Source: an uncultured Bacilli bacterium
GTDB taxonomy: Bacteria > Bacillota_I > Bacilli_A > RF39 > UBA660
Length of the DNA: 64,000 nucleotides
Reading direction: 5' to 3'
NCBI GenBank assembly: GCA_947629255.1
Contig: CANRDF010000001.1
Coordinates: 758-64,757 of the forward strand
Shown: piece after piece, positions 2,785 through 43,443 of the stretch
Numbering within the stretch: position 1 is the first letter of the stretch
How the letters are laid out: each line of letters opens with the position of its first letter
Notes under the pieces: generated by a model
Seen by the model: the letters and a program-made list of their open reading frames with translations, nothing else
What the model was told of the DNA's origin: nothing
Database searches by the model: none
Made by a program: the position numbers and the translations under genes

Positions 2785-4077
2785 CTATCCTAAACTCATC
2801 TTTTCTAGAACCTCACCTTTTAACTGTTTCCCATCATTCTCAGTAATATGCACTTTTACCATCGTATTATTTGGAATTTCTTCTTTTACAGAAACTCTTA
2901 AATAGTTGCTTGTAAGGCCTGTACTGACTTCCCCACTTTTTTCAATCAACACTTCTAAATCTTGACCAATAAATTTTTTAGCATAAGATACTTCTAGTTC
3001 TTCGGATAACTCGCATAAAACATGAGAACGTCTTTTTTTCTCTGTGTCACTTACTTGAACTTCTTCTGGAGCTTTGGCAGACACCGTTCCATCTCGTTTC
3101 GAAAATGGAAAAACATGAATCTTACTAAAAGCAAACTTTTTCGAATTTTCTACTGTTTCTTCAAATAACTCATCGGTCTCATAAGGATGACCTACTATAA
3201 TATCGGTTGTAATGGAAACATCCGGACGAATCTCCCGAATTTCTTTTAATTTATCTTCAAAATATTTTAAATCATATTTACGATTCATTTTCTTTAAAAC
3301 TTCATCACTGCCTGCTTGTAAAGGAATATGAAAATGATTACAAATCTTTGGATTATGACGAAGTTCTTCCATAAATTTTTCATTGAGTTCAGTCACTTCA
3401 ATCGAAGAAATACGAATTCGTTTTAAATTTTCTAATTTACTTGCTTCATGAATTAAATCGGTTAAATCATAAGGAGTTCCAAGTCCATAAGACCCCGTAT
3501 GAATCCCTGTTAAAACAATTTCTTGATGACCATTGTTCACAAGACTTTCCATTTCTTTTAAAGCTACATGAAAGTCTTTACTTCTTGGTACTCCTCTTAC
3601 AAAAGGAATAATACAATAACTACAGAAATTATTACATCCATCTTGAATTTTCACAAAAGCTCTAGTATGAGTTGTAAACTTATAAACTTCCATATCTTCA
3701 AAAGGAAGTTCCCTCGTTTCATTAAAAATAGTAATTGGTTGATGATTTTTTTGATAATCTTCTATAAGTTCTACAATTTGACTTTTATCTTTATTCCCTA
3801 GTAAAATATCGATTCCCATTGTTTGATAAAGAGTATTTTGATTTTCTGAAGAACACCCACATACAACGAGAATAGCACCCTTATGACGATTACGAAAACG
3901 TTCGACCATCTCTTTTGATTTATGGTCAGCTACATTCGTCACCGTACAAGTATTGACAATAATAATATCTGGACTTTCTTTATCATAAACATATCCATGT
4001 TTCAAAAGTTTTTCTTGCATCATTTCTGATTCATAAGTATTTACTTTACAACCAAGAGTATAAATATAAAAGGTCAT
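2785..4077 (-). CDS. radical SAM tRNA methylthiotransferase, MiaB/RimO/MtaB family (MtaB-like by size)
   Basis: N-terminal MTTase domain (YTLGCKVN). Radical SAM CxxxCxxC motif (CNNFCSYC) and a C-terminal TRAM-like region. Start moved to ATG 4077 (MTFYIY), which has an AGGTGAGG RBS; the ORF-track start is a GTG. Confidence 0.8.
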   Translation of the reverse strand: MTFYIYTLGCKVNTYESEMMQEKLLKHGYVYDKESPDIIIVNTCTVTNVADHKSKEMVERFRNRHKGAILVVCGCSSENQNTLYQTMGIDILLGNKDKSQIVELIEDYQKNHQPITIFNETRELPFEDMEVYKFTTHTRAFVKIQDGCNNFCSYCIIPFVRGVPRSKDFHVALKEMESLVNNGHQEIVLTGIHTGSYGLGTPYDLTDLIHEASKLENLKRIRISSIEVTELNEKFMEELRHNPKICNHFHIPLQAGSDEVLKKMNRKYDLKYFEDKLKEIREIRPDVSITTDIIVGHPYETDELFEETVENSKKFAFSKIHVFPFSKRDGTVSAKAPEEVQVSDTEKKRRSHVLCELSEELEVSYAKKFIGQDLEVLIEKSGEVSTGLTSNYLRVSVKEEIPNNTMVKVHITENDGKQLKGEVLEKMSLG

Positions 4078-4784: not shown

Positions 4785-5999
4785 TTATTTACTTTCAATC
4801 ACATAAGGATTATCCATCGTTCCAAGTCCTGTAACCTTTACTTTCTTGGCTAATGTAATGACAGGTCTTACAAACAAACCACTTGATTCTGAAATGTCTC
4901 TTGTTAAAGATCCATCAGGTGAAACCGCAATATAAGAGATGTTATTGTTTTCTTTTTTATTTGGAGTCATGGTCCACCAAGATGCCTGAAGGGAATCTTT
5001 ATACAAATAGTAATCTTTGTTTTCTATTGTATCTCCTCCAGCAAACATCACTTCATCGGCAGTAAGTAAGGCCACTTTTTCGGATAACGTTGTTCCTCCA
5101 CAAGCATTTGTTGGCATTTTCTCATCAAAGATTCGGATATTTGATAAATATTCAATACGATTATTTTCATCTGTTAACATACTATCATCATAACAATACA
5201 AAGTACTTACAATTTGCGAGTCCACACTTCCTAAGTAATTTTCATACCAAGTATTTAAATACTCTTTCACAAGGGAGTCATTAAAAGCATAAGGAGTTTC
5301 ATTGTTTTCTTCTTTCATCTTCACTAATTCTTCCGAAGTATTATTTAACACTAATTTGACAGTTTTATCTTCATTAATTTTAACAATTCGCCATAGAAGC
5401 CCTGCGAATGATACATAGTTATTTTCTACATTTCCATGAAAGTAATACATCGTTCCATATTGTTCTAATTTTTCAATTAAACCTATGGCACTAGCATCTT
5501 CGGTCGTTTCTTGACTAGCCAAAATCGTACTTGCAAATGTCTCATCCATTTCATCAATATCTGTTTCAATCTCAAATTTTAAATCAGAATTAAGAGGATT
5601 ATTCACACTTAGATAATAACGATGTGTTTCCATTGGTTTTAACTCATAACGACTCACAATCACAGTTCGTGATAAATTACTTTCAATTGTTTCAAAATCT
5701 TCATTTGTTGAGGTTACTTTGTAAGTCACTCCATCGGTACTTCCAGAAATATTTGTTAAATGAACATAATAAAACATGGGATCACTAGACTGATTGGTAA
5801 TTGAAAACTCTAATATATTTTTACCTAACTGATAACTTTTCCCAGATAGATAATTCACTGATAAATCATCATTGACATAGGTATAGCCTAAAGAATCTTC
5901 TTGTCTTCCTAAATATGCTTGATATTGTAACAAGATAAAGACACATAAAACCATTCCACAAATAATAAACATTAATGATACTCGATATTTTTTACGCAT
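4785..5999 (-). CDS. secreted/membrane-anchored protein, paralog of the SipW-type signal peptide family (C-terminal NPY motif)
   Basis: N-terminal KK + TM. WRI(V/I) core motif and C-terminal MDNPYVIESK shared with the 860- and 461-aa paralogs. Own TTGACA-17-TATACT promoter at 6023-6051 (minus strand). Confidence 0.55.
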   Translation of the reverse strand: MRKKYRVSLMFIICGMVLCVFILLQYQAYLGRQEDSLGYTYVNDDLSVNYLSGKSYQLGKNILEFSITNQSSDPMFYYVHLTNISGSTDGVTYKVTSTNEDFETIESNLSRTVIVSRYELKPMETHRYYLSVNNPLNSDLKFEIETDIDEMDETFASTILASQETTEDASAIGLIEKLEQYGTMYYFHGNVENNYVSFAGLLWRIVKINEDKTVKLVLNNTSEELVKMKEENNETPYAFNDSLVKEYLNTWYENYLGSVDSQIVSTLYCYDDSMLTDENNRIEYLSNIRIFDEKMPTNACGGTTLSEKVALLTADEVMFAGGDTIENKDYYLYKDSLQASWWTMTPNKKENNNISYIAVSPDGSLTRDISESSGLFVRPVITLAKKVKVTGLGTMDNPYVIESK

Positions 6000-7569: not shown

Positions 7570-9110
7570 TGATATAATACTACCATAAGAAGGTAGGTTT
7601 TCTAAGAGTATGTGTGAAGAGTTAAAAAAAGAAATAGAAGAAAGTCAAAATTTAGGAAGAAGAGAAAGAAAAATAAAAGAAAGACAATTGCAAAAGAAAT
7701 ATAAGGATAAAACAATAAGAATCAAGTTTGGAAAAAAATTTACTAAATCTCCTGGCTTAAGTAGAGAACAACAAAGAGAATTATTAAAAGATAAAAACTT
7801 ATTAAATGAATTAAGAAAAATTATCAAAAAATATTTTCCTGATTTAATGTCTTTATTTTCTAAACTTACGGATAAAAGACACAAAAGTTATGTTACTTAT
7901 AAAATGAGAACAATTATTATGACTAAATTGTTTGCTTTACTATGTGGTATTACAACTATGACAGGCATTAATGATGAATTTCATACAGAAGAAGCAATTG
8001 AAAATTTATCTAAAATTTGTAATCAAGAATTAAAAGAAATACCTGATTGGCAAACAATACAGGATGTGATAGAACAATTAGATTATAATGAGATTGATGA
8101 TATTAGAAAATATATGTTTAAAGCTTTACTTAGAAGTAAAATGTTTGATCGATTTCGTTATAATGGTTGTATTCAATTAATTGTAGATGCTACAGGTCTT
8201 ACTGCTTTAGACTATAACTTAAATGGCAATTGTTTAACGAGAACAAGAGATGGGAAAACAAAATATTATAAATATGTTTTAGAAGCCAAAGTAGTATTCG
8301 GCAACATGCTTATTAGTATTGATTCGGAATGGATTGAAAATAACAATTTCAATAATGAAAAAGATAAACAAGATTGTGAAACAAAGGCTTTTAAAAGAAT
8401 GGCACCTAGAATCAAAAAGAATTATCCTAAATTAAAGTTTATTATTACAGGAGATGCCTTATATGCAACTACTCCTATGATTAATCTTTGCCAAGATAAT
8501 AACTGGCATTATATTTTTAATCTTAAGAAAGATCGATTAAAAAATATTTATGAAGAATTTGAAGATAACATCAATTATGAAAATGAAGTTTCTAAAGAAA
8601 ATTATTTTTTATCTTCTAATATTTTATTTAAAGATAATAAGATTAATGCTCTTCGATACATAGAAGTAAAAGAAGATAAAACAACCGTTTTCAATTATAT
8701 TACTGATTTATCCGTAGATACTTATAACATTGAAGAGATTGTTAAGATGGGTAGACGTCGTTGGAAAATTGAAAACGAAGGTTTTAATGAGCAAAAGAAT
8801 GGAACTTATAAAATAAGTCATTTATGTAGCAGATTTGAAAATGCATTAAAGATTCATTATCTATTTATACAAATTGCTCATACCATTAGACAATTACTAG
8901 AATTGGGTTCTTTGGTTGTTAAATCCATAAAAAGATATGTGAAGAAAAAAGAAATAAGCAAAGATATCACCCACACGCTTATTTCTTCCAAAATCACAAA
9001 TCTAGAAAGTTTAGATTTAAACTTTCAATTAAGATTTGATGATTAGATTATACTACTAAATTTGACCTTTGAAAACTAGTGTGGGTGATATTTTTATAAT
9101 TTTGATTTTT
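7570..9110 (+). mobile_element. IS element carrying an IS4-superfamily DDE transposase (boundaries approximate)
   Basis: Single transposase ORF with an extended -10 (TGaTATAAT, 7570-7578). Terminal repeats not confidently identified. atactac occurs at 7577 and 9055. Confidence 0.45.
7610..9046 (+). CDS. DDE transposase (IS4/IS1634-like)
   Basis: 478 aa. C-terminal RRRWKIENEGFNEQK resembles the IS4-family R-x3-E-x6-K signature. Lys/Glu-rich N-terminus. Confidence 0.7.
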   Translation: MCEELKKEIEESQNLGRRERKIKERQLQKKYKDKTIRIKFGKKFTKSPGLSREQQRELLKDKNLLNELRKIIKKYFPDLMSLFSKLTDKRHKSYVTYKMRTIIMTKLFALLCGITTMTGINDEFHTEEAIENLSKICNQELKEIPDWQTIQDVIEQLDYNEIDDIRKYMFKALLRSKMFDRFRYNGCIQLIVDATGLTALDYNLNGNCLTRTRDGKTKYYKYVLEAKVVFGNMLISIDSEWIENNNFNNEKDKQDCETKAFKRMAPRIKKNYPKLKFIITGDALYATTPMINLCQDNNWHYIFNLKKDRLKNIYEEFEDNINYENEVSKENYFLSSNILFKDNKINALRYIEVKEDKTTVFNYITDLSVDTYNIEEIVKMGRRRWKIENEGFNEQKNGTYKISHLCSRFENALKIHYLFIQIAHTIRQLLELGSLVVKSIKRYVKKKEISKDITHTLISSKITNLESLDLNFQLRFDD

Positions 9111-11550: not shown

Positions 11551-11691
11551 CTATTTGTTGCATTTGAGTGGTCTTGTGATTCCATCTAAGAAACCACCAA
11601 GAAATGAAATGACGCCTGCGATCACTCCACCAATTACGAGCCAGCTTACTCCACCACCATAAGTGGCTAAGAGTTCCTCTTTTTCCATCAT
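11551..11691 (-). CDS. double-glycine-leader bacteriocin precursor peptide 1 (GxxxG-rich)
   Basis: Manual translation gives MMEKEELLATYGG|GVSWLVIGGVIAGVISFLGGFLDGITRPLKCNK. Strong RBS AAAGGAGGTGA. ATGA overlap with the upstream ORF. Confidence 0.75.
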   Translation of the reverse strand: MMEKEELLATYGGGVSWLVIGGVIAGVISFLGGFLDGITRPLKCNK

Positions 11692-12158
11692 GGGTCTTCA
11701 CCTCCTTTCAAGGTTTTGATAAGAATTTCCATAAGGCTTTTCTTATCTTCAATTAAAGTAACATCAATCGTTTCTTTATCGTAAAACTCAAGTTTAGGAA
11801 TTTCTAAAGAAACGGTTTCATAAGCGACATTTTGGATCACTTCTATACTTCCAAATTCTTTGACTTTCAAAGAATATTTTTTTGATTTGATCCATAATTC
11901 ATTACTTTCTTTTAAATTTTTTGCATGAGAATATGGCATCAAAACTTTTAAAGTACAATCATTCTTCTTACATTCATATAAACCTTGCAAAGGAATTGTT
12001 TCTTCAATTTTGTAGAAGAACAAAAGACTAATACAAAAAAGAAATAAAAGTAAGAAAAAAATTAAAAATTTTAACTTTGTTTTTTGATGTAACAAGGCAT
12101 ATATGTTATACTGTGGATTTTTTGTTTGCAAATGTAATCTTCCTTTCAAATAAATCAC
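11688..12158 (-). CDS. membrane-anchored small protein of the bacteriocin operon (possible accessory/immunity)
   Basis: 156 aa with one N-terminal TM. Overlaps the transporter 3-prime end and peptide 1 start (translational coupling). Confidence 0.45.
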   Translation of the reverse strand: MIYLKGRLHLQTKNPQYNIYALLHQKTKLKFLIFFLLLFLFCISLLFFYKIEETIPLQGLYECKKNDCTLKVLMPYSHAKNLKESNELWIKSKKYSLKVKEFGSIEVIQNVAYETVSLEIPKLEFYDKETIDVTLIEDKKSLMEILIKTLKGGEDP

Positions 12159-14145
12159 TATGATCTTTATGACTAATATAAATAACGGTTTTCCCCTTTA
12201 ACAATTTTCGAATTCCCCCAATAATCTTCACTTCCATCGAATCTTCCACTTCACTTAAAACTTCATCGAGTAAATAAACACTTCCCTCTTTCATTAGAGC
12301 CCGAGCAAGTAATATTCTTTGTCTTTCTCCACCAGACAAGGAAGAATCATTAATGAATGATGCATAACGAAGAGGCTTTTTACTTACAATCGATTCAATC
12401 TCACAAGCCCGACAAACCTCATCAAAATGTTTACCTTTTTCACTACCCATTAAAATATTATCTTCAATAGTTCCCGCGACAAAAGACTCGTTTTGACTTA
12501 AGTAAATGACGGAAGAACGAATCTCAGACAAAGTATAATCTTCTAAATCTTTTTCTAAAAAAGTAATTTTTCCCATATAATCCGTAAGTTCTCGATGCAA
12601 AATTTTACACAAAGTACTTTTTCCACATCCACTCGGTCCATCTAAGAAGACATGTTCTTTCGCTTTCACTTTAAAACTAAAATCAACAATACTTTCTTTG
12701 ACATCATTATAAGAATAACTAATATGTTTTCCTTCAATACTTGGAACAGGAATCACTGATGTAGTCTTCACTTCTTCTTCCTTAAGTTCCATCGTTTCAC
12801 TTAATTTTGAAAGAATCCCTTTCATATAGTAAAATCTTGGCAATAAATCTGTAAGTTCTTTTAAAGGATTTATAAAATACAAATATAAACTTTGAAATAA
12901 AAGAAAATCATAAATAGTTAAAATGTTATCTTTCACTAAAATCATTCCATATGTCATTAAAAGAAAGAACAAGATTTCTAAAAAGTTTTCCCTGATAAAA
13001 TCAATCACAAAAGCATGACTTTTTTCTTTCGTATTTAAAATCACGGTTTCACAAAGACGTTCTTCCATGGTTTGAATCGAGTATTCTGTTAAATTTAAGT
13101 TTTTCATACTCGGATAAAGTTTGATTTTTTCCATAATAAATTCATTCCATTTAGTATTATTTTCCATTAAATGTTTTATAATTTTATAGTAATACCTTGA
13201 AGTAAGAGAACTAATGACACAGTAAAGAAACATACCAAGAACGACAACCAGAGTGAGATGATAATCTAAGAAAAACAAAAGAACTAACGAAGAAATACCA
13301 AGAATTCCTTCAAGAAAAAATGTTATACAAATCTGAATAAATAAGTCTTTTACATTTTTTGCTTCTTCAATTCTTGTAATGATATCTCCTTCATGAAAGC
13401 TTTGAAATTTTGGCATGGGAAGTTTTAATAAATGAGAAACAAATGAATAAAGATAAGTTACTTCTACATTTCGATTTAGTTTCAATTCCATTTTTCCTTT
13501 TCCATAAGTAAAAATACATTTGAGAATTGTAAATCCTAAAAAGATTCCAACAAAAAGCCAAAACTGTTGATTCGAAAACAAAGGAGTATATTCCATTCCA
13601 ATTTTTAAATAAAAACTCGAAAGAATCGAAAGAACAGAAATCATAAGACTTAAGAAAACAATGACAAAAATATTTTTCTTTTCTCTTTTAACAATCTCCA
13701 TCACATGTTTTAAAACACTTTTCTCTTTTGGAATTCTAGGAATATAAGTTCTTGGAATGGCCACTAAAACTATGCCATCCCATATGGTTTGTAATTCTTT
13801 CTTTAAAACTTCTCTTTTTCCAGAAGACGGATCCATAATCGTTACACTTTTTTCACTAATTTTAGTTAAAACAACAAAGTGCTGCATTCCATTTGGTAAT
13901 ACAAAATGAAGAATGGCTGGAAGCGGAATTTCTTTTAAATGATTCATATCACTTTTTTCGCCAAAAGAATCAAATTGATATTTCTTTAACGTTTCCACTA
14001 AATGATAAGCAGTCGTTCCATTCTGATCAGTATAAGTATCTTCTTTTAATTTTTCAATAGGCACATATCCATGATAAAACTCTATAATATAGAGAAGACA
14101 TGTTACTCCACAATCTCTAAAATCTCGTTGTACAATCGACTTCAT
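12106..14145 (-). CDS. bacteriocin ABC exporter with N-terminal C39 peptidase domain
   Basis: C39 catalytic Cys (RDCGVTC) and His (HFVVL). Six-TM region, Walker A GPSGCGKST, LSGGERQR signature, LLDE Walker B. Confidence 0.88.
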   Translation of the reverse strand: MKSIVQRDFRDCGVTCLLYIIEFYHGYVPIEKLKEDTYTDQNGTTAYHLVETLKKYQFDSFGEKSDMNHLKEIPLPAILHFVLPNGMQHFVVLTKISEKSVTIMDPSSGKREVLKKELQTIWDGIVLVAIPRTYIPRIPKEKSVLKHVMEIVKREKKNIFVIVFLSLMISVLSILSSFYLKIGMEYTPLFSNQQFWLFVGIFLGFTILKCIFTYGKGKMELKLNRNVEVTYLYSFVSHLLKLPMPKFQSFHEGDIITRIEEAKNVKDLFIQICITFFLEGILGISSLVLLFFLDYHLTLVVVLGMFLYCVISSLTSRYYYKIIKHLMENNTKWNEFIMEKIKLYPSMKNLNLTEYSIQTMEERLCETVILNTKEKSHAFVIDFIRENFLEILFFLLMTYGMILVKDNILTIYDFLLFQSLYLYFINPLKELTDLLPRFYYMKGILSKLSETMELKEEEVKTTSVIPVPSIEGKHISYSYNDVKESIVDFSFKVKAKEHVFLDGPSGCGKSTLCKILHRELTDYMGKITFLEKDLEDYTLSEIRSSVIYLSQNESFVAGTIEDNILMGSEKGKHFDEVCRACEIESIVSKKPLRYASFINDSSLSGGERQRILLARALMKEGSVYLLDEVLSEVEDSMEVKIIGGIRKLLKGKTVIYISHKDHSDLFERKITFANKKSTV

Positions 14146-14264
14146 AAAAATATCCTCCTATATATATATTCAAGAAAAAGTGCCAATTTCCTTTTTTTTT
14201 ATGCAAATTTCTTCAAAAAAGTTAAAAATTTTACATTCTGTTTACGTTTTTGATTATTTTTATC

Positions 14265-14340
14265 ATTCTTCTTTACATTTTGCATACGCTACATAAAAGT
14301 GTAAAGAAAAAGTAAAGAAATTGTTCTTTACTCATCTATA
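14265..14340. promoter_or_regulatory. repeat-rich putative operator/promoter region upstream of the bacteriocin operon
   Basis: Four copies of TTCTTTAC/GTAAAGAA in alternating orientation, including the palindrome CTTTACATTTTG..CAAAAGTGTAAAG. A T9 tract sits at 14195-14203. Confidence 0.4.
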
Positions 14341-14348
14341 TTTTTTTA

Positions 14349-14657
14349 CTATTTTTCTTTTAACTCTTCAATTGTCTCTACGGATAAACCTGTAATTCTA
14401 GAAATTTTTTCTATTCCTAGCTCATGAATTTCTTCTAACATATTCTTAGCTATCTCCCTACGTCCAGCGTCAAGTCCTTCTCCATAAAAAACATTTTTAA
14501 GATTCTCTTCCCAATTGTAGATTTTACGTAACTCTTTGTCTTGTCTTAAATCAATTGGACTTGTTGCTATCGTCATTAAGTCATCATCTCCTCTTGCAAT
14601 TTGCTTTCTTTTCTTCTCTGATGTTTCTTGCATTAACCATAAGTGTCTTAGTAGCAA
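14349..14657 (-). pseudogene. remnant of an Rpn-family (PD-(D/E)XK) putative transposase, C-terminal fragment only
   Basis: C-terminus EGLDAGRREIAKNMLEE..ISRITGLSVETIEELK matches the conserved Rpn/YhgA tail. The ~220-aa N-terminal nuclease domain is absent. Confidence 0.45.
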
Positions 14658-14890: not shown

Positions 14891-17473
14891 TCATTCCACT
14901 AATTCTAACTCATATGGGTTTTCATAACTTCCATCTTTACCATTATCTTTTATTTGAACATTTTGTTTCAAATATAAGGTAGGTCGAATCGCATTGGAAT
15001 GATTTGGGCCATATCCTTTATAACTGGGGTAGGAACAATGAACAAATCCAGTATTGGTCATTTGAAAAACATATGCATTCCCCGAGAAGAAATATGAAAC
15101 CGACAACATCCACACATTATCAGAGATATCAGTCGAATATAGCCAATCATGTTCCTCACAACTCGTATTATAATCACTTAAATCAGTTTCTAAGCAAGAA
15201 TCTCTAACTGCTCCCCCTGCCGCATAACCATAGTCACTTGGATACATGACGGCAATGCTATGGAATAAATTTTGGTCTAATTCACCATTCGCATCCTTGG
15301 TATTTTCTCTAGTCCAATAAGAAGTCGAAGCTTTGTTGGGTATAATGTTGCTTCTCTCCCATTTATAAAAGGTAGGAGTATTATCATATCCATAACCCAT
15401 GATAGCACCTGTGTCCCAAATAATTTCTTCGTCTATCATGTTTGTATCACTTAAAGTTGAATAATACGTTTCATTTAAATACCGCATCAAATCTGAATCA
15501 GTCCAGTCAGTGTGAGAGGAATCAGAATCCCATTGCCGATTTCCTATACTATCATTGCTAATTATTTTGAACCTTTTTTCAGTGGTTCCAGTTGATGTTT
15601 GGACATTCACAAGTCCTATAATTCTCCATAATTCATTGTTAAATGTTAAATAATTATGAACATAATCTGTACTACTGTCTGTGTAGTTATCTCCTGCATA
15701 ACGGCATTCATTCTTTTTCCAAAATTCTATGCTAATATCTGAATGTTCTACCATATATAAGCCATTTCCTTCTGTTACAATAGGAACATTTTTAATTGGA
15801 GATACCAAGATTGTTTTGGATGTTTCATTTGCATTTCCAGATTCATCTGTTACTTTTACAGTGATGGTGTAATTCTCACATGGTATAACTGAAAATTTAT
15901 GACTATTTTCTCCATTTTCCCAGTTTCCTTCATCTATTTTATATTCATATGATTGAATTCTTGTCTCTTGATCTGCACTTTTACTTGCATCTGCTAGGAT
16001 TGTGTTTCCATTGGAACTTAATTGTAAATCGACTGTTGGTGGAGTTACATCTATATAAGATATTTGAATAGAACTGTGAGTTACATTGTTATATGCATCT
16101 TTGGCATAAACATAATAAGTTCCATTTTCTGTTACTGGGTAATCTGCATTATAACTTTTTGGATTGCCGTCTATTGTTATCCATGTTTCTGGGTCTTTTG
16201 CTTCTGTCATCACTTGATATCCAAATAATCCTGCTTTTTCATCACTTAAATTGATATGGATTTTATCACTTTCTCCCCAAGCAGTTAAATCATTTGTAAG
16301 AGTAATTGTTGGTGGTTTTTTATCAATAATATCTGTACTATATTTCATTGAACTTGTGTGTCCCAAAGCATCTTGAGCAAATATATAATATATTCCATTA
16401 TCTTCTATTGTTTGATTTACTATATAATCATTTTGAGTTTTCTCTACACTTTCCCATTCACTTGGTGGAGCTGGGGTACTTTCTGATAACAACATAATTG
16501 GTGTTAAATCTTCTTTGGTGATTTGATATTTTACTAAGCCACTTTGAGAATCTTTTAGGGTTATTGTTAATTCTACTGATGTATGATTGTCTTTTTGTTC
16601 ATATTTAATATCTGGTCCTACTGTATCAATCTTTGTCACTTCAAATTCTTTTTCTTTTATATTTCCCATTTCATCTTTTACCGAAAAATAATATTTTCCT
16701 AATTTTGTAAAATCTTCTGTAATTTCAAATGTTGTATTTTTATCACTAATTGGTTTCCAATTTTGAGTTTCTTGCATTTGACTTATTTTATATTCTATTA
16801 ATTTATACTTTTCACTAACTGCTTTTAAAGTGATACTCTCACTTTTTTCATTATATTCTGCTGTATTTGAGTTAGCACTTAATATAATATTATTTTCTAA
16901 TTGCTCTGTTGTTTTATATGTTGCTACGACTGTAATCTTACTTTTAAAGTAAGCATTCATAACTTCTTCGATGGGTGGTGTTTCCTCATCTAACCATAAT
17001 CTTAAATGGTAAGTTACACTTTGATTTTGCCCATCTAATATTCCTGTTGTTAATCTATGAGACTTAGTTGCATTTTCTAATGTTTCTTTGACGCTTTCAT
17101 AATCACTTAACACTAATGGCGTTCTATCGTCAAGTTGAACTTTTAGATATTTTTCTGGTAAAAGTTTTTGTTCTTCTTCTAATTGTAATGTTTCCAGATT
17201 TACTTGATAGGTTAAAGAAGTAGGACATATATTGGTAATGGTAAATTCGTATGGAGTTAATTCTTCTCCTTCTTCATCTGAAATCGGAAATGCTTTTTGT
17301 AATGAAATAGGATTTTTCTCATCTGTTAAAGTGACTTTAAAACAACTAGATGCAAGCGTATCATTATCCATTTGAGAAAGTCTAAGTTCCCAGAACGCAT
17401 AAGTCACTCCTACTACACTTAATAATAATATACTTAATCCTAAAATAAATAAACTTGTTTTCTTTCTTTCCAT
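14891..17473 (-). CDS. large secreted surface protein with SipW-cognate-type signal peptide and Ig-like repeats
   Basis: N-terminus KKTSLFILGLSILLLSVVGVTYAFWE resembles the TasA/camelysin signal. Repeated TVGPD/PPTITL/TPPTVDL modules. C-terminal WRIIGLVNV...NPYELELVE homology with the 461-aa paralog. Confidence 0.6.
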   Translation of the reverse strand: MERKKTSLFILGLSILLLSVVGVTYAFWELRLSQMDNDTLASSCFKVTLTDEKNPISLQKAFPISDEEGEELTPYEFTITNICPTSLTYQVNLETLQLEEEQKLLPEKYLKVQLDDRTPLVLSDYESVKETLENATKSHRLTTGILDGQNQSVTYHLRLWLDEETPPIEEVMNAYFKSKITVVATYKTTEQLENNIILSANSNTAEYNEKSESITLKAVSEKYKLIEYKISQMQETQNWKPISDKNTTFEITEDFTKLGKYYFSVKDEMGNIKEKEFEVTKIDTVGPDIKYEQKDNHTSVELTITLKDSQSGLVKYQITKEDLTPIMLLSESTPAPPSEWESVEKTQNDYIVNQTIEDNGIYYIFAQDALGHTSSMKYSTDIIDKKPPTITLTNDLTAWGESDKIHINLSDEKAGLFGYQVMTEAKDPETWITIDGNPKSYNADYPVTENGTYYVYAKDAYNNVTHSSIQISYIDVTPPTVDLQLSSNGNTILADASKSADQETRIQSYEYKIDEGNWENGENSHKFSVIPCENYTITVKVTDESGNANETSKTILVSPIKNVPIVTEGNGLYMVEHSDISIEFWKKNECRYAGDNYTDSSTDYVHNYLTFNNELWRIIGLVNVQTSTGTTEKRFKIISNDSIGNRQWDSDSSHTDWTDSDLMRYLNETYYSTLSDTNMIDEEIIWDTGAIMGYGYDNTPTFYKWERSNIIPNKASTSYWTRENTKDANGELDQNLFHSIAVMYPSDYGYAAGGAVRDSCLETDLSDYNTSCEEHDWLYSTDISDNVWMLSVSYFFSGNAYVFQMTNTGFVHCSYPSYKGYGPNHSNAIRPTLYLKQNVQIKDNGKDGSYENPYELELVE

Positions 17474-17520
17474 ATAAAAATGAACCTACTTTCTATCATA
17501 AGTTCATCATATAACATATA

Positions 17521-17531
17521 CCCCCCCCCCC
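17521..17531. repeat. C11 (G11 on coding strand) homopolymer in the promoter of the 860-aa surface-protein gene
   Basis: Eleven consecutive C, 48-58 nt upstream of the ATG. On the minus strand it sits between TTGACT and a TATAT-like -10. Confidence 0.85.
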
Positions 17532-17574
17532 ACAAGTCAATACTTTTTTATATTTTTTTGCGTTTTGTGGTGTA

Positions 17575-18714
17575 TTATTCTTCATTTTTTTTCATGAAAC
17601 TTAATTTTTCATATACCATTTTAAAATAAAGTAAAAATTTATTTATTTCATCTGTTGTTGTTAAATGAGAAAAACTAATTCTTAATGTACTAGAAGCTCT
17701 TTTTAAATCATTATACATTGCCATAACCGAAGTTGATATCTCTCCACTTGCACATGCCGTATTCGTACTTACATAAACTTCATGTTCTTCTAAGGCATGC
17801 AAGAACGTTTCAGCTTTCATATCCATTAAAGAAATATTTAAAATATGCGGAATACAAATATTAGAGTGATTAATTAAAACTCCATCATATTTTTTTAAAT
17901 CTTCTACAACTTTATCATTTAATCTTTTGATAAAATTTTCTCTTTTATCTAAATCTGTTGTTGCAAGACGAATCGCTTTCGCGAATGCTACAATTAACGG
18001 TACTGGTGGTGTTCCAGGATTTAATGTGTTGGTATGTCCACTTCCATATAATAAAGGTGTTAATGGCACACGACTATTTTTATATAATAAACCAATCCCT
18101 TTTGGTCCATAGATTTTATGAGCTGAAACACTTGCTAAATCCACATCATGAAAATTCACAGGAACTTTTCCTAAAGCCTGCGTCATATCACTGTGAAAGA
18201 AAGTTTGATTATTTTCTTTTTTAATCACTTGCCGAATCATTTTTAAAGGTTGTCTTATTCCAGTTTCACTATTGACAGCACAGATGCTTACTAGAATCGT
18301 ATCTGGTCTCATTTTCTTTTTTAAATCTTCAAAATCAATTAAACCATCTTCTTTATTATCAACATAACTAATCTCAAAACCAATACTTTCTAGATATTTA
18401 CAAATTTCATAAATAGAAGGATGCTCTAGTTTCGATACTATAATGTGATTTCCCATTCGCATATTGGCTAAACTGGTTCCAATAAGTGCTAGATTATTGG
18501 ACATCGTCGCTCCACTCGTAAAAGTAATTTCACTTTCTAAGACATTAAAGGTATCACTAATTTGTTTTATTGCACTGTGAACTAAAGCTTTGGACTTCAC
18601 ACCTAAACTATGAATGGAATTTGGATTTCCTGAAAAATCTCTTGTACTTCTAATATAAGACTCCAAAACATCATAATTCACTGGTGTTGTTGCACTGTAA
18701 TCAAGATAAATCAT
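17575..18714 (-). CDS. cysteine desulfurase (NifS/IscS/NifZ family, class V aminotransferase)
   Basis: PLP-lysine motif SAHKIYGPKG. 379 aa. Adjacent to ezrA, as nifZ is in B. subtilis. Confidence 0.85.
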   Translation of the reverse strand: MIYLDYSATTPVNYDVLESYIRSTRDFSGNPNSIHSLGVKSKALVHSAIKQISDTFNVLESEITFTSGATMSNNLALIGTSLANMRMGNHIIVSKLEHPSIYEICKYLESIGFEISYVDNKEDGLIDFEDLKKKMRPDTILVSICAVNSETGIRQPLKMIRQVIKKENNQTFFHSDMTQALGKVPVNFHDVDLASVSAHKIYGPKGIGLLYKNSRVPLTPLLYGSGHTNTLNPGTPPVPLIVAFAKAIRLATTDLDKRENFIKRLNDKVVEDLKKYDGVLINHSNICIPHILNISLMDMKAETFLHALEEHEVYVSTNTACASGEISTSVMAMYNDLKRASSTLRISFSHLTTTDEINKFLLYFKMVYEKLSFMKKNEE

Positions 18715-36614: not shown

Positions 36615-39248
36615 TTATTTTTTAATAAGTTTTCTTACTTGAACTTCCTCTTTATCTAAAATAATTGCATTCGTTAAATCAAATTTTTCATTAACTCTAG
36701 GATCATCACTTAATATGACACGGCAACCTGATAAATTGCCTTTTGTCTTTATTAATTCTAATTTAGGATGCTTAATTTTATTTAAATCAATAAACGCATA
36801 AGTTTTTCTTAAATTGGCCCCATTTATATTAACATCTGTAAAATCTTTACCACTTAAGTCTAAACCTTCCAAATTACAACTTCTTAAACTACGAAAACTG
36901 ATTTTTTGAGGGTCAATATGAGCATTCGTTCCTTTTAAATTAGCGCCCTCTAGGTAAAAGTGTCCAAAATCTATTTTACTTAAATCTAAATTTTCAAAAT
37001 TGGTATATGATAAATCCCAATCACAACTCTCCTCTATAGTTAGTATATTTATATGAGCACTTGTATTTTTTAAATTGGCCCCGGTAATACAAACATCTTT
37101 AAAATCTGCTTTAGATAAATCAAGTCCTTCTAAATTAGTACCTTCTAAACTTTTTTCACACACTTTTTGAGGATTAATATGAGCATTCGTTCCTGATAAG
37201 TTTGCACATTTTATCTCACAGCCCGAAAAATTTTTGGAAGCCATAGGAACATTCCTCAGATTTACATCTATTAAACATTTTTTAAAAACACACTGTGGAT
37301 CTATATTTACAAGTGTATTTACAAAACTTGCACCTTTTATCATCGTATGATTAAAATTTGCTTTTTGAAGATTACAACCTTCTAAATTACAGTTTTCTAC
37401 TGAATTTTTTGCAAGCGTTTGAGGATTGATAGGAGCATGAGTATTTTTTAAATTCGTATTTTTTAAAATGGCTCTTGAAAAATCAGATTTTGATAAATCA
37501 AGTCCTTCAAAGTTACAATCTGTAAAATTTTTATAACGCATCTCTTTTGGATCAATATGAGCATTTGTTCCTTTTAATTTTGTTTTATATAGTTTTATTT
37601 TTGAAAAATCCACATTCGATAAATCTATATCTGTAAAATCAACTTCCGAAAAATCTTGTTGAAGAGCTTTTTCCATCCCAATTTTTTGAATAATGATTTC
37701 TTTTTTATCAGCATAACTTGCAAAAAGTAAATTAGGACAAGTTGGAGTTAAAATACATTTTCCGTCACAAAAAACAAAAAAATCTTCTGTATAAGGATTT
37801 TGCATGATAAAACAATTTTCTATATTGCTTTTTACATCATGATTGATAAATACTTCTCCTGGCACTATGTAAGCAAACGTATCTTTTAAATTTGTTTCTT
37901 CTAAATATACCCCTGCAAAGGACACATGGGATAAGTCTAAGCCTTCTAAATTGCATCTTCCTAAACTTTTATTAAGAATTTTTTGAGGATCAATATGTGC
38001 ATTTGTTCCTTTTAAGTTTGCACCTCTTATTTGTACATCTGTAAAATCAGCTTCTGATAAATCAAGGCCTTCTAAATTGCAGTCTTTTAAACTTTGTCCT
38101 ACCACTTTTTGTGGATCTATATGAGATCCAGTTCCTTTTAGATTAGATCCTTCTATATCACAACCTGTGAAATCTTTACCACTTAAGTCTAAGCCTTCAA
38201 GATTAGCATAAGATAGTCTTTTATTTTCAATCGTTTGAGGATCAATGTGTGCACCCGTGTCTTTTAAATTTGCCATTTCTATTTCACAACCAGTGAAATC
38301 TTGCCCACTTAAGTCTAAGCCTTCAAGTTTTGCCAAAGCTAGACTTTTTCCTGCAATCGTTTGAGTATTAATATGTGCCCCTGTATTTCTTAAATTAGCT
38401 CCTACGATCCCAACATCTGTAAAATCTACAGTAGATAAATCTATACCGCTTAAATCTGTATATTCAAAATTTTTGCTGTTAGCTTTTTCTATTCCAATTC
38501 TTTGAATGACTTCTTCTTTCGCTTTTCCTAAATAAGAAAGTGGTCTTAGTCGAAGCTGAATTTGTTTTACTTTCTTCCAAATTGATGTATAAAAAATACT
38601 TTTCTCTTCGATTACTTCCACTTTTGTTTCTTTTTCTTCGATAGAAATTATATCTTGTTTGGTAGAAAAAAGATAATCTTCTAAAATAGTCTCTAATGTA
38701 TAATTTTCTAAATGTGCTGGTAAAGAAAGAAGACTTGATTTTCCATAACTTTGAATACTTTCTATTAAATATGGAAATTTTTTTAAATCTTGATAATAAT
38801 TTATATATTCTTCCTTGTCTTCTTGATAATCTTTCATAATTTTTTTAAGAAGCAAATTGTGAAAACGCATATAAATATCTTTTTGAAGATTCATATTTCC
38901 AAAAGTTAAGACTATTTTTTCTAATTTGCTTTCGATAATATCAAATTTTTCTAAATTCACATCTAAATTCCAATCTTCAGTTAAATGAATAAGTTCTAAA
39001 AATAAAATATAAATTTCTAAATCCATTTCTAGTTTCATGAGTTCTACAGATAGCTCTGTTTCTGGATTTCCATAGTGATTTAGAACTAAACTTCCTTCTT
39101 TTTGTTCTTGTTCTTTTTTTAATTTATAACTCGAAATCAACAAATCTAATTTCTTACTTTCTTTTTCAAGCGAAACAGAGTATGTTTTTAATTCTTCTAT
39201 CACTGTTTTTAAATACTCGATTTTATTGATATTTTCCATTTGTAACAT
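36615..39248 (-). CDS. pentapeptide-repeat protein with N-terminal coiled-coil domain (paralog 1)
   Basis: Start MLQMENINKIEY with RBS GGGAGG. More than 15 copies of the 40-aa unit CNLEGLDLSxxDFTxxxIxGANLKGTNAHIDPQK. Conserved C-terminus GCRVILSDDPRVNEKFDLTNAIILD. Confidence 0.7.
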   Translation of the reverse strand: MLQMENINKIEYLKTVIEELKTYSVSLEKESKKLDLLISSYKLKKEQEQKEGSLVLNHYGNPETELSVELMKLEMDLEIYILFLELIHLTEDWNLDVNLEKFDIIESKLEKIVLTFGNMNLQKDIYMRFHNLLLKKIMKDYQEDKEEYINYYQDLKKFPYLIESIQSYGKSSLLSLPAHLENYTLETILEDYLFSTKQDIISIEEKETKVEVIEEKSIFYTSIWKKVKQIQLRLRPLSYLGKAKEEVIQRIGIEKANSKNFEYTDLSGIDLSTVDFTDVGIVGANLRNTGAHINTQTIAGKSLALAKLEGLDLSGQDFTGCEIEMANLKDTGAHIDPQTIENKRLSYANLEGLDLSGKDFTGCDIEGSNLKGTGSHIDPQKVVGQSLKDCNLEGLDLSEADFTDVQIRGANLKGTNAHIDPQKILNKSLGRCNLEGLDLSHVSFAGVYLEETNLKDTFAYIVPGEVFINHDVKSNIENCFIMQNPYTEDFFVFCDGKCILTPTCPNLLFASYADKKEIIIQKIGMEKALQQDFSEVDFTDIDLSNVDFSKIKLYKTKLKGTNAHIDPKEMRYKNFTDCNFEGLDLSKSDFSRAILKNTNLKNTHAPINPQTLAKNSVENCNLEGCNLQKANFNHTMIKGASFVNTLVNIDPQCVFKKCLIDVNLRNVPMASKNFSGCEIKCANLSGTNAHINPQKVCEKSLEGTNLEGLDLSKADFKDVCITGANLKNTSAHINILTIEESCDWDLSYTNFENLDLSKIDFGHFYLEGANLKGTNAHIDPQKISFRSLRSCNLEGLDLSGKDFTDVNINGANLRKTYAFIDLNKIKHPKLELIKTKGNLSGCRVILSDDPRVNEKFDLTNAIILDKEEVQVRKLIKK

Positions 39249-39299
39249 AAGAAGACCTCCCTGCAAGCTTATTATAACAAAGTACCATAAATTTTCAAT

Positions 39300-39323
39300 A
39301 AAAAACGAATCTTTGATGACTCG
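39300..39323 (-). terminator. conserved terminator (copy 1 of 4) after the PHP gene
   Basis: CGAGTC-loop-GATTCG with a G-U wobble, then a U-run. The TTGAAA-N16-TATAAT promoter of paralog 1 follows. Confidence 0.6.
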
Positions 39324-39348
39324 CTGTTTATATTTCGTAGAATAAAAT

Positions 39349-40236
39349 TTATATCTTTTGTACTTTATTAATCCAGTCTTGAATAAAACTAGCAGGAATA
39401 TTTAAATTCTTGTCTTTTCCTGTTCCCATTTCTATATCTGGTTTTGTTTTTGCGTGATAATCCGAACCACCAGAAATATATTTATGATATTTATGAGCTA
39501 AATTTTTAATCAACTCACGTTCTTCTAAAGAAAATAAAGGATATTCTGCTTCAACACCATCTACATTAGTTGTTGCTAAAATAGTTTCTATTGTTTGTTG
39601 TTTATTATCAAAAGGATATAAAAATGGATGGGCTAAAAATGCTAATCCTCCCGCGTCATGAATTCTATCCACAACTTCTTTGATAGTTAAGAAATGAACC
39701 GTTTCATCATAATAGAAAACGCTATGCCTATTACTCGCGTGCATTCTAAAAAAACCAGTAGCCGTGAAATTTCCATATTGTTTAATTAATTCCTCATTGT
39801 CTTTATAACTTAGAATTTCATTTGCTATGACAAAAGATGCCCATTGTTTGGTTGGATCATTCCGATCAATATATAAATTCTCTTTGTTAAATTTAAATCC
39901 CAATTCTTCAATTTTCTTTGTGAATGCTTTTAATGCTTCATTTTGTAATGTTTCTTGATCAATTTGATGAATTTTTAATTTTTTATAATCTATTCCATAT
40001 GCGAGTATTTCTATTGGAACATGTTCATAAACTGCTTTCAGTTCCGATCCTGGTATAATCATACCAGAAAATTTTTCTCTTAAACTTGGATTTTCCTCAA
40101 GTTCTTGATAAGCCGCAACTTGATCATGATCCGTAATGGAAATGATCTCAAGTTTTTGATTTTCTGCATTACTTAAAAGTTCTGCTAAACTATCTGTTCC
40201 ATCTGAATAATTTGTATGCATATGCAAGTCGATCAT
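39349..40236 (-). CDS. PHP-domain metal-dependent phosphoesterase
   Basis: N-terminus MIDLHMHTNYSDGTDS. Only 28 bp after the paralog 2 stop, with its own RBS. No terminator in between. Confidence 0.75.
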   Translation of the reverse strand: MIDLHMHTNYSDGTDSLAELLSNAENQKLEIISITDHDQVAAYQELEENPSLREKFSGMIIPGSELKAVYEHVPIEILAYGIDYKKLKIHQIDQETLQNEALKAFTKKIEELGFKFNKENLYIDRNDPTKQWASFVIANEILSYKDNEELIKQYGNFTATGFFRMHASNRHSVFYYDETVHFLTIKEVVDRIHDAGGLAFLAHPFLYPFDNKQQTIETILATTNVDGVEAEYPLFSLEERELIKNLAHKYHKYISGGSDYHAKTKPDIEMGTGKDKNLNIPASFIQDWINKVQKI

Positions 40237-40264
40237 TTTATTTACCTCTTTCTTTTCATTTCTC

Positions 40265-42196
40265 TTATTTAATCATTTTTTCAATTGAGCTTTCATTTAA
40301 AATCGTTGCATTTGTTAAATCAAATTTTTCATTGATTAAAGGATTATCATTTAATATGATACGGCATCCCGACAAATCTCCTTTTTTCGTTAAATATTTT
40401 AATGTTTCATAACAATAACGAATTTTATTTAAGTCAATGAAAGCATTTGTTTCTCTTAAATTAGCTCCGTATATAGAACAATATGTAAAATCTGCACTAG
40501 ACAAATCAAGGCCTTCTAAATTACAATAATCTAAAATTTTTCCTTGAACTTTTTGAGGGTCAATATGAGCATTGGTTCCTTTTAAATTGGCTCCACCTAT
40601 ATAACATTTTGTAAAATCTTGACTACTTAAGTCAAACCCTTCAAAATTGACACCAGATAGATTTTTCTCCTTAATGGTTTGAAGATCAATATGAGCATTT
40701 GTACCTTTTAGATTGGCTCCTGATATATCACAATCCGTAAAATCGGCATTTGACAAATCAAGTCCTTCTAAGTTACAATTTCTTAAACTTTTCTCTTCCA
40801 CTTTTTGAGGATCAATATGTGCATTGGTTCCTTTTAGATTAGCTGCTCGTATAGTACAGTCGGTAAAATCTTGACTATTTAAATCTAAGTTTTCGAGATC
40901 GGTATGGTATAAATTTTTTCGTTTCACAGTTTGCGGATTAATATGTGCTCCGGTATTTTTTAAATTAGCTTTTGAGATGTCAACATCTGTAAAATCCGCA
41001 CTCGACAAATCAAGCCCTTCTAAGTTACAACCTTCTAAACATTTCCATTTTGCTTTTTGTGGATCTATATGAGCATTTGTACCTTTTAAATTTGCTCCCA
41101 TAATCTCACAACCCGTAAAATCCTGATGGCTTAGCTCTAATCCTTCAAAATTGACTTCAATTAATCTTTTCAGAGCAATAGTTTGAGGATCAATAAAAAC
41201 TTTGGCATTTTTTAAATTAACTCCTTCTATATAAACACCTGTAAAATCCGCATTAGAGAGATCTAAACCTTCTAAATTGCATCTTCTTAAATCTTTATTA
41301 TAAATTTTTTGAGGATTAATACGCGCAGATGTATTACTTAAATCACAACGAAAAATCCATGCATCAGTAAAGTCTACAGTAGATAAATCAATACCACTTA
41401 AATCTGCATCTCTAAAATGTTTTGATTTTGCTCTTTCTACTCCAACTCTTTCAATAACTGCTTCTTTTGCTTTTCTTAAATAAGCAAGTGGAATCATTTC
41501 AGATTGAATTCTTTTTAATGTGCTCCTAAACGAAGTATGAGTAGAACTCTTTTCTTCTTTCACTTCGACTTTCGTCTCTTTTTCTTCAATAGAGATGATT
41601 TCTTGCTTAGTAGAACAAAGATAGTCTTCTAATATAGTCTCTAATGTATAATTTTCTAAATGTTCTGGTAAAGAAAGAAAATTTGCTTTTCCATAACTTT
41701 GAATACTCTCTATTAAGTATGGAAATTTTTTTAAATCTTGATAGTAATTTATATATTCTTCTTTTTCTTCTTGATAATCTTGAATGATTTTTTTAAGAAG
41801 CAAATTATGATAACGTTTATAAATCTCTTTTTGAAGATCCATATCCCCAAAAGTTAAAACAAGCTTTTCTAGTTTGTTTTCAATAATATCAAATTTTTCT
41901 AAATTCACATCTAAATTCCAATCTTCTGTTAAATGAATCAGTTCTAAAAATAAAATATAAATTTCTAAATCCATTTCTATTTTCATGAGTTCTACAGATA
42001 ACTCTGTTTCTGGATTTGCATAAGAACTTAAAACCAAACTTCCTTCTTTTTGTTCTTGTTCTTTTTTTAATTTGTAATTTGAAATTAATAAATCTAATTT
42101 TTGACTTTCCTTTTCGAGTGAAATAGAATATGCTTTTAATTCTTCTATCACTTTTTTTAAATATTCTATTTTATTTATATTTTCCATTTGTAACAT
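40265..42196 (-). CDS. pentapeptide-repeat protein with N-terminal coiled-coil domain (paralog 2)
   Basis: N-terminal ~230 aa nearly identical to paralog 1. Same 40-aa super-repeats and C-terminus. Confidence 0.7.
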   Translation of the reverse strand: MLQMENINKIEYLKKVIEELKAYSISLEKESQKLDLLISNYKLKKEQEQKEGSLVLSSYANPETELSVELMKIEMDLEIYILFLELIHLTEDWNLDVNLEKFDIIENKLEKLVLTFGDMDLQKEIYKRYHNLLLKKIIQDYQEEKEEYINYYQDLKKFPYLIESIQSYGKANFLSLPEHLENYTLETILEDYLCSTKQEIISIEEKETKVEVKEEKSSTHTSFRSTLKRIQSEMIPLAYLRKAKEAVIERVGVERAKSKHFRDADLSGIDLSTVDFTDAWIFRCDLSNTSARINPQKIYNKDLRRCNLEGLDLSNADFTGVYIEGVNLKNAKVFIDPQTIALKRLIEVNFEGLELSHQDFTGCEIMGANLKGTNAHIDPQKAKWKCLEGCNLEGLDLSSADFTDVDISKANLKNTGAHINPQTVKRKNLYHTDLENLDLNSQDFTDCTIRAANLKGTNAHIDPQKVEEKSLRNCNLEGLDLSNADFTDCDISGANLKGTNAHIDLQTIKEKNLSGVNFEGFDLSSQDFTKCYIGGANLKGTNAHIDPQKVQGKILDYCNLEGLDLSSADFTYCSIYGANLRETNAFIDLNKIRYCYETLKYLTKKGDLSGCRIILNDNPLINEKFDLTNATILNESSIEKMIK

Positions 42197-42247
42197 ATAA
42201 TCACCTTATCTATCTCTATTATAGCAAAGAACAGTATATTTTCAAAT

Positions 42248-42273
42248 AAAAAAAACGAATCTTTTATGACTCG
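42248..42273 (-). terminator. conserved terminator (copy 2 of 4)
   Basis: Same element as 39300-39323. Confidence 0.6.
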
Positions 42274-42303
42274 TTATATTGAATAAATTTTTTTCTTAGT
42301 TAT

Positions 42304-43335
42304 TTATTTAACAAGTTTTCTTGTTTGTACTTCTTCTCTATCTAAAATAATCGCATTTGTTAAATCAAATTGTTCATTAACTCTAGGATCATCACTTAAT
42401 ATAACACGACACCCTGATAAATTACCTTTTTTTATTCTTCCTAATTCTAATTCTGTATTGAATTCATAATAATATCGTTTGATTTTATTTAAATCAATAA
42501 ATGCATCAGTTTGTTCTAAATTAGCTCCATATATATTAACATCTGTAAAATCTGCATCCGATAAATTCAAGCCTTTCAAATTACAATTTCTTAAACTTTG
42601 ATATTCGATATTTTGAGGATCTATATGAGCATTGGTATCTCTTAAATCGGTGTCATAAATAGACACACCTGTAAAATCCGCACTCGACAAATCAATTCCT
42701 TCTAAATTACAACAGAATAAACTTTTCCTTTGAACTTTTTGAGGATTAATATGAGCATTCGTTCCCCTTAGATTAGCTCCATCTATGTCACAATCTGTAA
42801 AATCCGCACTCGACAAATCAAGTCCTTCTAAATTACAATATCTTAAACATTTTTCTCTCACTTTCTGAGGATCAATATGCGCATTCGTTCCTTTTAAATT
42901 AGTATTAAAAATGAGTACATCTGTAAAATCTTGAGTGCTTAGGTCTAATCCTTCAAGATTGGCATCATATAGAGTTTTCAAAAAAACAGTTTGAGGATTA
43001 ATAAAAGCTTTTGTATTTTTTAAATTAGCTCCTACTATTCTAACATTGTTAAAGGAAGCTTTAGAAAGATCTATTCCTTCTAAATTACAATCTCCTAAAT
43101 CTTTTTCATACACTTTTTGAGGGTCAATATGCGCATTGGTGTTTTTTAAGTTACACTCTACTACATTTACCCTTGTAAAATCTACAGTAGACAAATCAAT
43201 GCCACTTAAATTCTGCCTGAAAAAAAATCTGATTTTCGCATCGTCCAATCCAATTTTTTGAATAACTGCCATCTTAGCTTTTCCTAAATAAGGCAAAAAC
43301 GTTAATAGATACTGAAGCTTTTTAATATTTTCCAT
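42304..43335 (-). CDS. pentapeptide-repeat protein, short form lacking the N-terminal domain (paralog 3)
   Basis: 343 aa. Starts MENIKKLQY..LGKAKMAVIQKIGLD, then the same repeats and C-terminus. Confidence 0.7.
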   Translation of the reverse strand: MENIKKLQYLLTFLPYLGKAKMAVIQKIGLDDAKIRFFFRQNLSGIDLSTVDFTRVNVVECNLKNTNAHIDPQKVYEKDLGDCNLEGIDLSKASFNNVRIVGANLKNTKAFINPQTVFLKTLYDANLEGLDLSTQDFTDVLIFNTNLKGTNAHIDPQKVREKCLRYCNLEGLDLSSADFTDCDIDGANLRGTNAHINPQKVQRKSLFCCNLEGIDLSSADFTGVSIYDTDLRDTNAHIDPQNIEYQSLRNCNLKGLNLSDADFTDVNIYGANLEQTDAFIDLNKIKRYYYEFNTELELGRIKKGNLSGCRVILSDDPRVNEQFDLTNAIILDREEVQTRKLVK

Positions 43336-43390
43336 AAGATAACCTCCCTATGAGTCTTATTATAGCAAATAATCATGAATTTTCAACTAC

Positions 43391-43415
43391 AAAAAAACGA
43401 ATCTTTTATGACTCG
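43391..43415 (-). terminator. conserved terminator (copy 3 of 4)
   Basis: Same element as the other copies. Confidence 0.6.
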
Positions 43416-43443
43416 TTATATTGAATAAATTTTTTGTTAGCAT

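Follow-up and report, generated by a model that had tools for sequence, protein, structure and literature searches.

SSR tracts situated in promoters or in open reading frames are an established basis of phase switching (PMC5953494, PMC11868660), and SSR phase variation has been reviewed (PMC11868660). Both the general principle by which the length of a promoter tract controls expression and the increase of mutability with repeat number have been described (PMC5953494). The locus analysed here resembles porA, opc and fetA of Neisseria meningitidis, in that a G/C homopolymer is located within the promoter of a surface-protein gene. In the Neisseria genes, a poly-G or poly-C of about 9-14 nt lies in or beside the spacer between the -35 and the -10, and its length governs the geometry of the promoter and with it the ON, intermediate or OFF state; intragenic tracts are also in use in related organisms. 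There are, however, differences between both cases. Neisseria is a Gram-negative pathogen, whereas the present host is a low-GC, apparently spore-forming gut Firmicute. Furthermore, the tract described here lies within a duplicated cassette (TTGAC, Gn, TAnnAT, a hairpin with a Shine-Dalgarno (SD) sequence, a T-run and the ATG) that is common to several paralogues. It should be noted that length-dependent expression was demonstrated in Neisseria, whereas for the present locus we only infer it.

As in the family described here, the vlp genes of Mycoplasma hyorhinis constitute a surface-protein multigene family, in which each copy has its own promoter-spacer homopolymer. This species is found within the low-GC Firmicute/Mollicute radiation, and the vlp copies, each with a poly-A tract between the -35 and the -10 of its promoter, switch independently and combinatorially. 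The Vlp proteins are lipoproteins with size variation of their tandem repeats. In the present case, by contrast, the genome is AT-rich, the tracts consist of G and they belong to genes for membrane-anchored proteins with Ig repeats, in which repeats of variable size were not seen. The Vlp system is cited in PMC11868660 (refs 20-21).

In Campylobacter jejuni and Helicobacter, as here, the genome is AT-rich and G/C tracts reach 8 nt or more almost exclusively in surface-structure genes. The tracts of these bacteria are mostly intragenic and near the 5' end, as are those of four distant homologues of the protein studied here (in contigs L009, L022, L025 and L027), and a poly-G/C contingency example has been reported in Helicobacter canadensis (PMC2823697). 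For the most part, the tracts of these bacteria are translational switches of glycosylation, flagellar and capsule genes of Epsilonproteobacteria, whereas the tract in the window (the whole 64-kb stretch of DNA that was analysed) would be transcriptional, and it belongs to one Ig-repeat family. The invertons of gut Bacteroidales and cwpV of Clostridioides difficile also produce stochastic ON/OFF expression of gut surface proteins, as is proposed here, but they act by site-specific inversion between inverted repeats, and no such repeats flank the window promoter. An invertible promoter was therefore rejected as a candidate: within 400 nt there are only AT-rich, low-complexity, imperfect inverted repeats. 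No recombinase was found next to the tract in the window.

The G11 tract and its candidate promoter

The tract appears as C11 on the plus strand, which is G11 on the coding strand of a gene for an 860-aa protein (Table 1). It is located in the intergenic region between this ORF and a nifS-like cysteine desulfurase gene (17575-18714). On the minus strand the order is AAAAAAGTA TTGACT TGT GGGGGGGGGGG TATATGTTATATGATGAACTTATGATAGAAAGTAGGTTCATTTTTAT ATG, with the tract directly after TGT. An earlier note on this DNA had placed a G11 tract about 50 nt upstream of a surface-protein gene; the tract is indeed present, and the gap to the ATG (at 17473) is 47 nt. With this position, 5' of the ATG and outside the reading frame, it does not qualify as an intragenic SSR.

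No other G/C homopolymer longer than 5 nt occurs in the window, whose GC content is 29.6%. By iid arithmetic from the window base frequencies, a run of this length is expected roughly 2e-4 times, and the composite TTGAC-N4-G8 was observed once, against 0.01 expected from dinucleotide-preserving shuffles. The length of the tract is far beyond chance. A homopolymer of about 8 nt or more was regarded as long enough to be hypermutable, and G11 exceeds this length. An assembly retrieved by exact protein sequence (L005) spans the tract and presents G11 with identical flanks; in another one (L001) the contig stops at G11+T, in a context matching that of the window. Since the same G11 was present in the same context in two independent assemblies, the window tract is not a read-end poly-G artefact.

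Table 1. Features of the window locus and of the homologous loci (positions refer to the window or to the contig named; spacings are from TTGAC(N) to the conserved hexamer)
Feature	Location	Position	Strand	Description
860-aa gene, presumably controlled by the tract	window	14891..17473	-	product membrane-anchored or secreted; tandem beta-sandwich (Ig/FN3/PKD-like) modules; C-terminal DUF6273-like domain
Leader hairpin	window	17479..17508	-	11 pairs including 3 G-U; RNA fold -11.9 kcal/mol, z = -3.1
TATGAT, family-conserved -10-like hexamer	window	17506..17511	-	TAnnAT unchanged across the six promoters aligned; spacing to TTGACT 23 nt with G11
TATGTT, candidate -10	window	17513..17518	-	consensus scan; spacer 16 nt at G11, 17 nt at G12
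G11 homopolymer, putative hypermutable tract	window	17521..17531	-	sole G/C run >5 nt; L005 and L001 agree
TTGACT, -35-like hexamer	window	17535..17540	-	consensus scan; 3 nt upstream of the tract
Promoter tract of P0003, other locus, sampled together with the window strain	L006			TTGACT-TGTGT-G10
Promoter tracts of two adjacent genes	L007/L008			TTGACG-CC-G8 and TTGACA-CC-G10
Promoter tract, Candidatus Ventrenecus avicola	L018			TTGAC-G10
Promoter tract of P0039	L093-L096			G8, without TTGAC (L093)
Promoter tract of P0051	L112			TTGACG-A-G10
Coding tract	L009	3973-3982		G10, out of frame; in frame at G9 or G12
Coding tract	L025	3925-3934		G10, out of frame; in frame at G9 or G12
Coding tract	L022	4165-4174		G10, out of frame from the SD-preceded ATG; shorter frame from a nearby ATG without SD
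Coding tract	L027	2549-2557		G9, in frame
Interrupted tract	L014	about 3830-3850		GGGGTGGGTGG, position homologous to pure tracts
Interrupted tract	L012	about 3810-3830		GGGGAGGGGA, position homologous to pure tracts
Interrupted tract of P0038	L117	1016-1027		GGGAGAGGGG, in frame, 64x coverage
Spacing	L007b			18 nt
Spacing	L018, L012			19 nt
Spacing	L006, L007a, L112			20 nt
Spacing	window, L014			23 nt

Across the tract, the consensus scan called a single minus-strand promoter, TTGACT-16-TATGTT (17540..17513), with 9/12 consensus matches. The tract had been described as lying between TTGACT and a TATAT-type -10. The first of these elements stands, whereas the -10 named, TATATG right after the tract (17520-17515), would leave a spacer of only 14 nt, and TATGTT (16 nt) or TATGAT (23 nt) are better candidates. 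At the consensus level, the tract is within the -35/-10 interval for both of them.

When six homologous promoters were aligned, one hexamer was invariant at T1, A2, A5 and T6; in this alignment TATGAT of the window corresponds to TAGAAT, TATAAT, TAAAAT, TAAAAT and TAAGAT. The Gram-positive extended -10 motif, TRTGn, precedes the conserved hexamer in L006, L007b, L093, L112 and L014, and is absent before TATGAT in the window. Compared with its closest promoter relatives, the window presents the change TGTGATAAAAT -> TGTTATATGAT, by which the extended TG was lost and the T at position 6 of TATGTT was gained together. This T is specific to the window, and the paralogues read TATGTG or TTTGTG there. 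From the consensus scan and this window-specific change, it follows that the -10 used in the window could be either TATGTT or TATGAT. If it is TATGTT, tracts of G11-G13 would give spacers of 16-18 nt, which suggests that the gene is now ON; if it is the family-conserved TATGAT, the 23-nt spacer suggests that the gene is now OFF.

Another aspect of the locus is the predicted leader hairpin, whose 5' arm abuts the conserved -10 hexamer and whose 3' arm bears the Shine-Dalgarno-like AAAGTAGGT (17492-17484). The hairpin is followed by a run of five T, of which the last four (17479-17476) are located beyond the stem on its 3' side. Of six homologous promoters, five have a corresponding hairpin made of other arm sequences, with folding energies from -11.8 to -18.3 kcal/mol. 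The leader had no Rfam match at E<=1, and the hairpin was left uncalled by the intrinsic-terminator scan, as its G-C pairs are too few for the rule of the scan. The hairpin and the T-run may act as a terminator and shield the gene against nifS read-through: transcripts begun about 7 nt past the conserved -10 would lack the 5' arm of the hairpin and so would escape termination, and read-through transcripts from nifS would include the whole hairpin and the T-run. Because the terminator scan gave no call, the arguments for such an insulator are the folding energies and the conservation only. The hairpin may alternatively be part of a leader that sequesters the RBS or stabilises the transcript.

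The putative surface protein and its family

In the AlphaFold (AF2) model of the 860-aa protein, an N-terminal hydrophobic helix (residues 2-26) is followed by repeated beta-sandwich modules (residues 45-560, pLDDT mostly 80-90), and the C-terminal 300 residues are poorly modelled. The search of the PDB with Foldseek retrieved Ig/FN3 domain strings as well as the SiiE BIg adhesin, and the lowest E was 1e-9. At the sequence level, the Pfam scores for PKD_4 (25.9 bits) and Big_3_3 (24.3 bits) were both just under the 27-bit cut-off, the matches to collagenase PKD domains in the PDB had an E of about 0.007, and a DUF6273-like segment gave a weak match. The Ig-like repeats proposed in the earlier note are thus backed by the structure model and the Foldseek matches. 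Judging from the N-terminal helix and these repeats, the product looks surface-exposed. As for the SipW-type signal that the same note had assigned to the protein, the prediction yields an N-terminal hydrophobic helix only, and the SipW-cognate signal model of NCBIfam gave no match at E<=1, either with the whole protein or with its first 60 residues. Since HMMER filters can lose short signal-peptide models, this result is an absence of support and not a disproof; the motif GVTYAFW after the hydrophobic core bears a loose resemblance to a SipW-dependent (TasA/camelysin-type) signal.

The protein family is rare and was found only in gut MAGs (rabbit, Hadza human and chicken) that carry the titles uncultured Bacilli, Tenericutes or Mollicutes. 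The closest full-length homologue of the 860-aa protein, P0002 (55% identity), could be placed on no contig. Tracts in promoters were found at seven loci, with lengths of G8, G8, G10, G10, G10, G10 and, in the window, G11, and TTGAC(N) lies immediately 5' of the tract in 6/7 of them. In distant homologues (L009, L022, L025, L027) a G9 or G10 tract is present after the start codon and before the signal-peptide core (Table 1); those genes in which the coding tract is out of frame will be missed or shortened by gene callers. The interrupted tracts of three further loci, which include both the promoter and the coding kind, look like "locked" alleles, and no tract was found in the paralogues P0042 and P0040.

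In about 527 kb of non-redundant, related low-GC sequence, the G/C tracts of at least 8 nt are without exception (11/11) at the 5' ends of family genes, and in every case the G's are on the coding strand. Seven of these tracts lie in promoters (G8-G11) and four are the coding tracts (G9/G10) of distant homologues. It should be noted that the loci of this set were chosen for containing family genes, although the 5' ends account for no more than about 1% of the sequence. Among metagenome contigs, the pattern TTGAC-N0-6-G7-N12-40-GAAAGTAGG gave 23 matches, all by chance, in contigs of 40-66% GC and none of them related; among viral contigs, the pattern G8...TAnnAT...GAAAGTAGG gave one unrelated match, also by chance.

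Two observations concern the surroundings of the paralogues. At the P0039 locus, some 55 nt separate the end of a large serine recombinase gene (L093 897-2891) from the G8 tract downstream of it; this is the sole promoter-type locus without TTGAC, and the insertion of a mobile element may have replaced its -35 region. Downstream of P0040, there are genes for bAvd and a reverse transcriptase (RVT_1) (L110 3773-4849; L111 3261-4324). This pair is the signature of a diversity-generating retroelement, which may diversify the C-terminal domain of the family proteins.

Proposed slippage in the tract and alternative readings

We consider that G11 is probably a simple-sequence contingency element in the promoter of the surface-protein gene. 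Slipped-strand mispairing in replication would lead to the gain or loss of G's in the homopolymer, the new G count would alter the distance and the helical phase between the TTGACT -35 and the -10, and with this change of promoter geometry the cells of the population would switch or grade the 860-aa Ig-repeat protein in a stochastic, reversible manner. From the sequences compared, we infer both that the length of the tract changes at a useful rate in this organism and that expression depends on it. Taken across the family, the differing tract lengths, the frame-shifting tracts in relatives and the locked alleles are, at the level of sequence comparison, the signature of contingency loci.

The proposal that a slippage-prone tract switches or tunes the surface gene was already contained in the earlier note. 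It is strongly supported by the lengths of G8-G11 in relatives, the frame-dependent coding tracts, the interrupted tracts and the confinement to 5' ends, but not by the window locus itself, where no length difference was observed among three assemblies (the window, L005 and L001, all G11). Likewise, no difference was observed among four assemblies of the P0039 locus, all of them G8. This same-locus test is weak, since it compares consensus sequences, at a coverage of about 5x, of seemingly one sample series. The sister strains (L100-L109) offer no orthologous tract for comparison, because their DNA, with nifS genes 94-99.6% identical, is unrelated from the nifS stop codon (window 17575) onward. 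Beyond nifS, one of them contains an ICE-like block (lysozyme/M23 peptidase, TraG/VirD4) and another one a parB-like ORF, and the end of nifS seems to be a hot spot of insertion or rearrangement.

In low-coverage SPAdes and Logan assemblies, the contigs are repeatedly interrupted at these poly-G tracts or within them, and therefore the promoters of the family tend toward contig ends. At the window tract, L001 and L002 end and L004 starts; at the P0051 tract, L113-L115 start. We rejected these breaks as a sign of length heterogeneity, given that Illumina poly-G failure fits equally (about 5x coverage, 3-nt junction overlaps).

The constancy of the tract within each locus would be explained if the tract belonged, as a fixed and practically stable part, to a duplicated promoter cassette and the gene were not switched on ecological time scales; the tract could then be what is left of earlier slippage, or a spacer with a structural role, such as a rigid, A-form-like run of G.C pairs. 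We regard this reading as unlikely, although it has points in its favour. Besides the single length per locus in every assembly (G11 three times, G8 four times), three loci have an exact 20-nt total in spite of their different flanks (5+10+5, 2+10+8 and 1+10+9), which looks like selection for one geometry and not like random drift. Against the contingency reading itself, the distances from TTGAC to TAnnAT are all at least 17 nt, with three independent loci at exactly 20, which a simple fluctuation around 17 nt would not predict; the lack of a tract in P0042 and P0040 also speaks against it. However, the tract lengths of the paralogues range from 8 to 11, with interrupted tracts at homologous positions, and orthologous coding tracts of different MAGs are one G apart, with opposite reading-frame states. 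In addition, such tracts are missing elsewhere in these AT-rich genomes, which argues for their retention for a purpose, and G/C runs as long as 10-11 nt have proved intrinsically unstable in the bacteria where this was measured.

Another reading, which we hold to be improbable, is that the tract acts by a way other than the -35/-10 spacing, so that the effect of its length would be graded or nil. It may then be the binding site of a regulator or belong to a promoter of an alternative sigma factor, or transcription may start from an extended -10 with the G-run modulating the UP/-35 contacts. The TRTGn motif at the conserved -10 of five homologues is consistent with this, as are the presence of a tract without TTGAC in L093 and the spacers of 18-23 nt, which are outside the classical optimum. 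Yet TTGAC(N) stands directly before the tract in six of the seven promoter-type loci, the tract length is unconserved, unlike a protein-binding motif, and the coding-region tracts of the same family are in a place where only frame-shifting can act.

Finally, it is hardly credible that the run is a sequencing or assembly artefact (two-colour Illumina poly-G or a chimeric join): several low-coverage contigs do end or start at these tracts, but artefactual poly-G is typically long and terminal, whereas the window tract is internal, both of its unique flanks are identical in the window and in the independent assembly L005, and the same architecture is present at seven loci from different MAGs and studies.

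Host, neighbourhood and significance

The window organism encodes EzrA and SpoIVA, and is therefore a walled, probably spore-forming Firmicute. The region downstream of the surface gene (11688-14657) contains a small ORF and the gene of an ABC exporter with a C39 peptidase (bacteriocin double-glycine-leader type), after which further short ORFs are found, one of them with a weak match to the Mycoplasma MAG1140 family. Next to the gene of SpoIVA (44848-46326), four consecutive genes at 36615-44418 code for pentapeptide-repeat proteins (883, 643, 343 and 324 aa); their series is broken by a PHP-domain gene. In addition, the variable region between tyrS and nifS encodes another protein with a DUF6273 domain (404 aa, 4785-5999), which has no poly-G upstream, and a DDE transposase of the IS type (7610-9046).

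The mechanism of a promoter-spacer homopolymer contingency locus is classical, and apparently it is undescribed in this lineage: in the literature covered by full-text searches, no account of homopolymer phase variation in these gut lineages came up. The known phase variation of gut commensals is dominated by invertible promoters, and to our knowledge SSR phase variation is scarcely documented in commensal, spore-forming Firmicutes. The points of note are the host lineage, the use of tracts throughout the family and a cassette that may be insulated by a terminator. In practical terms, since the tracts break low-coverage assemblies and put MAG genes out of frame, annotation pipelines will miss or shorten members of the family.

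As a wider and more tentative proposal, which we hold to be possible rather than probable, the uncultured gut Bacilli could have a lineage-wide "phasome", in which one Ig-repeat surface family would be varied on several levels at once. These levels would be a portable promoter cassette with poly-G, frame-shift switches made by poly-G at the 5' end of the coding region, locked alleles with interrupted tracts and, for at least one paralogue, an adjacent diversity-generating retroelement. In the portable cassette, the -10 abuts a terminator-like hairpin, so only the transcripts of the switchable promoter would escape termination. If this proposal is true, a surface variation of the Mycoplasma or Campylobacter style would exist in commensal spore-forming Firmicutes. 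Should the tract switch, the large surface proteins of this family would be varied stochastically by an uncultured commensal Firmicute of the gut, with a bearing on the evasion of immunity (IgA) and of phages and on the persistence of strains in the gut, and the view of phase variation in gut commensals would extend beyond invertible promoters to switching by SSRs.
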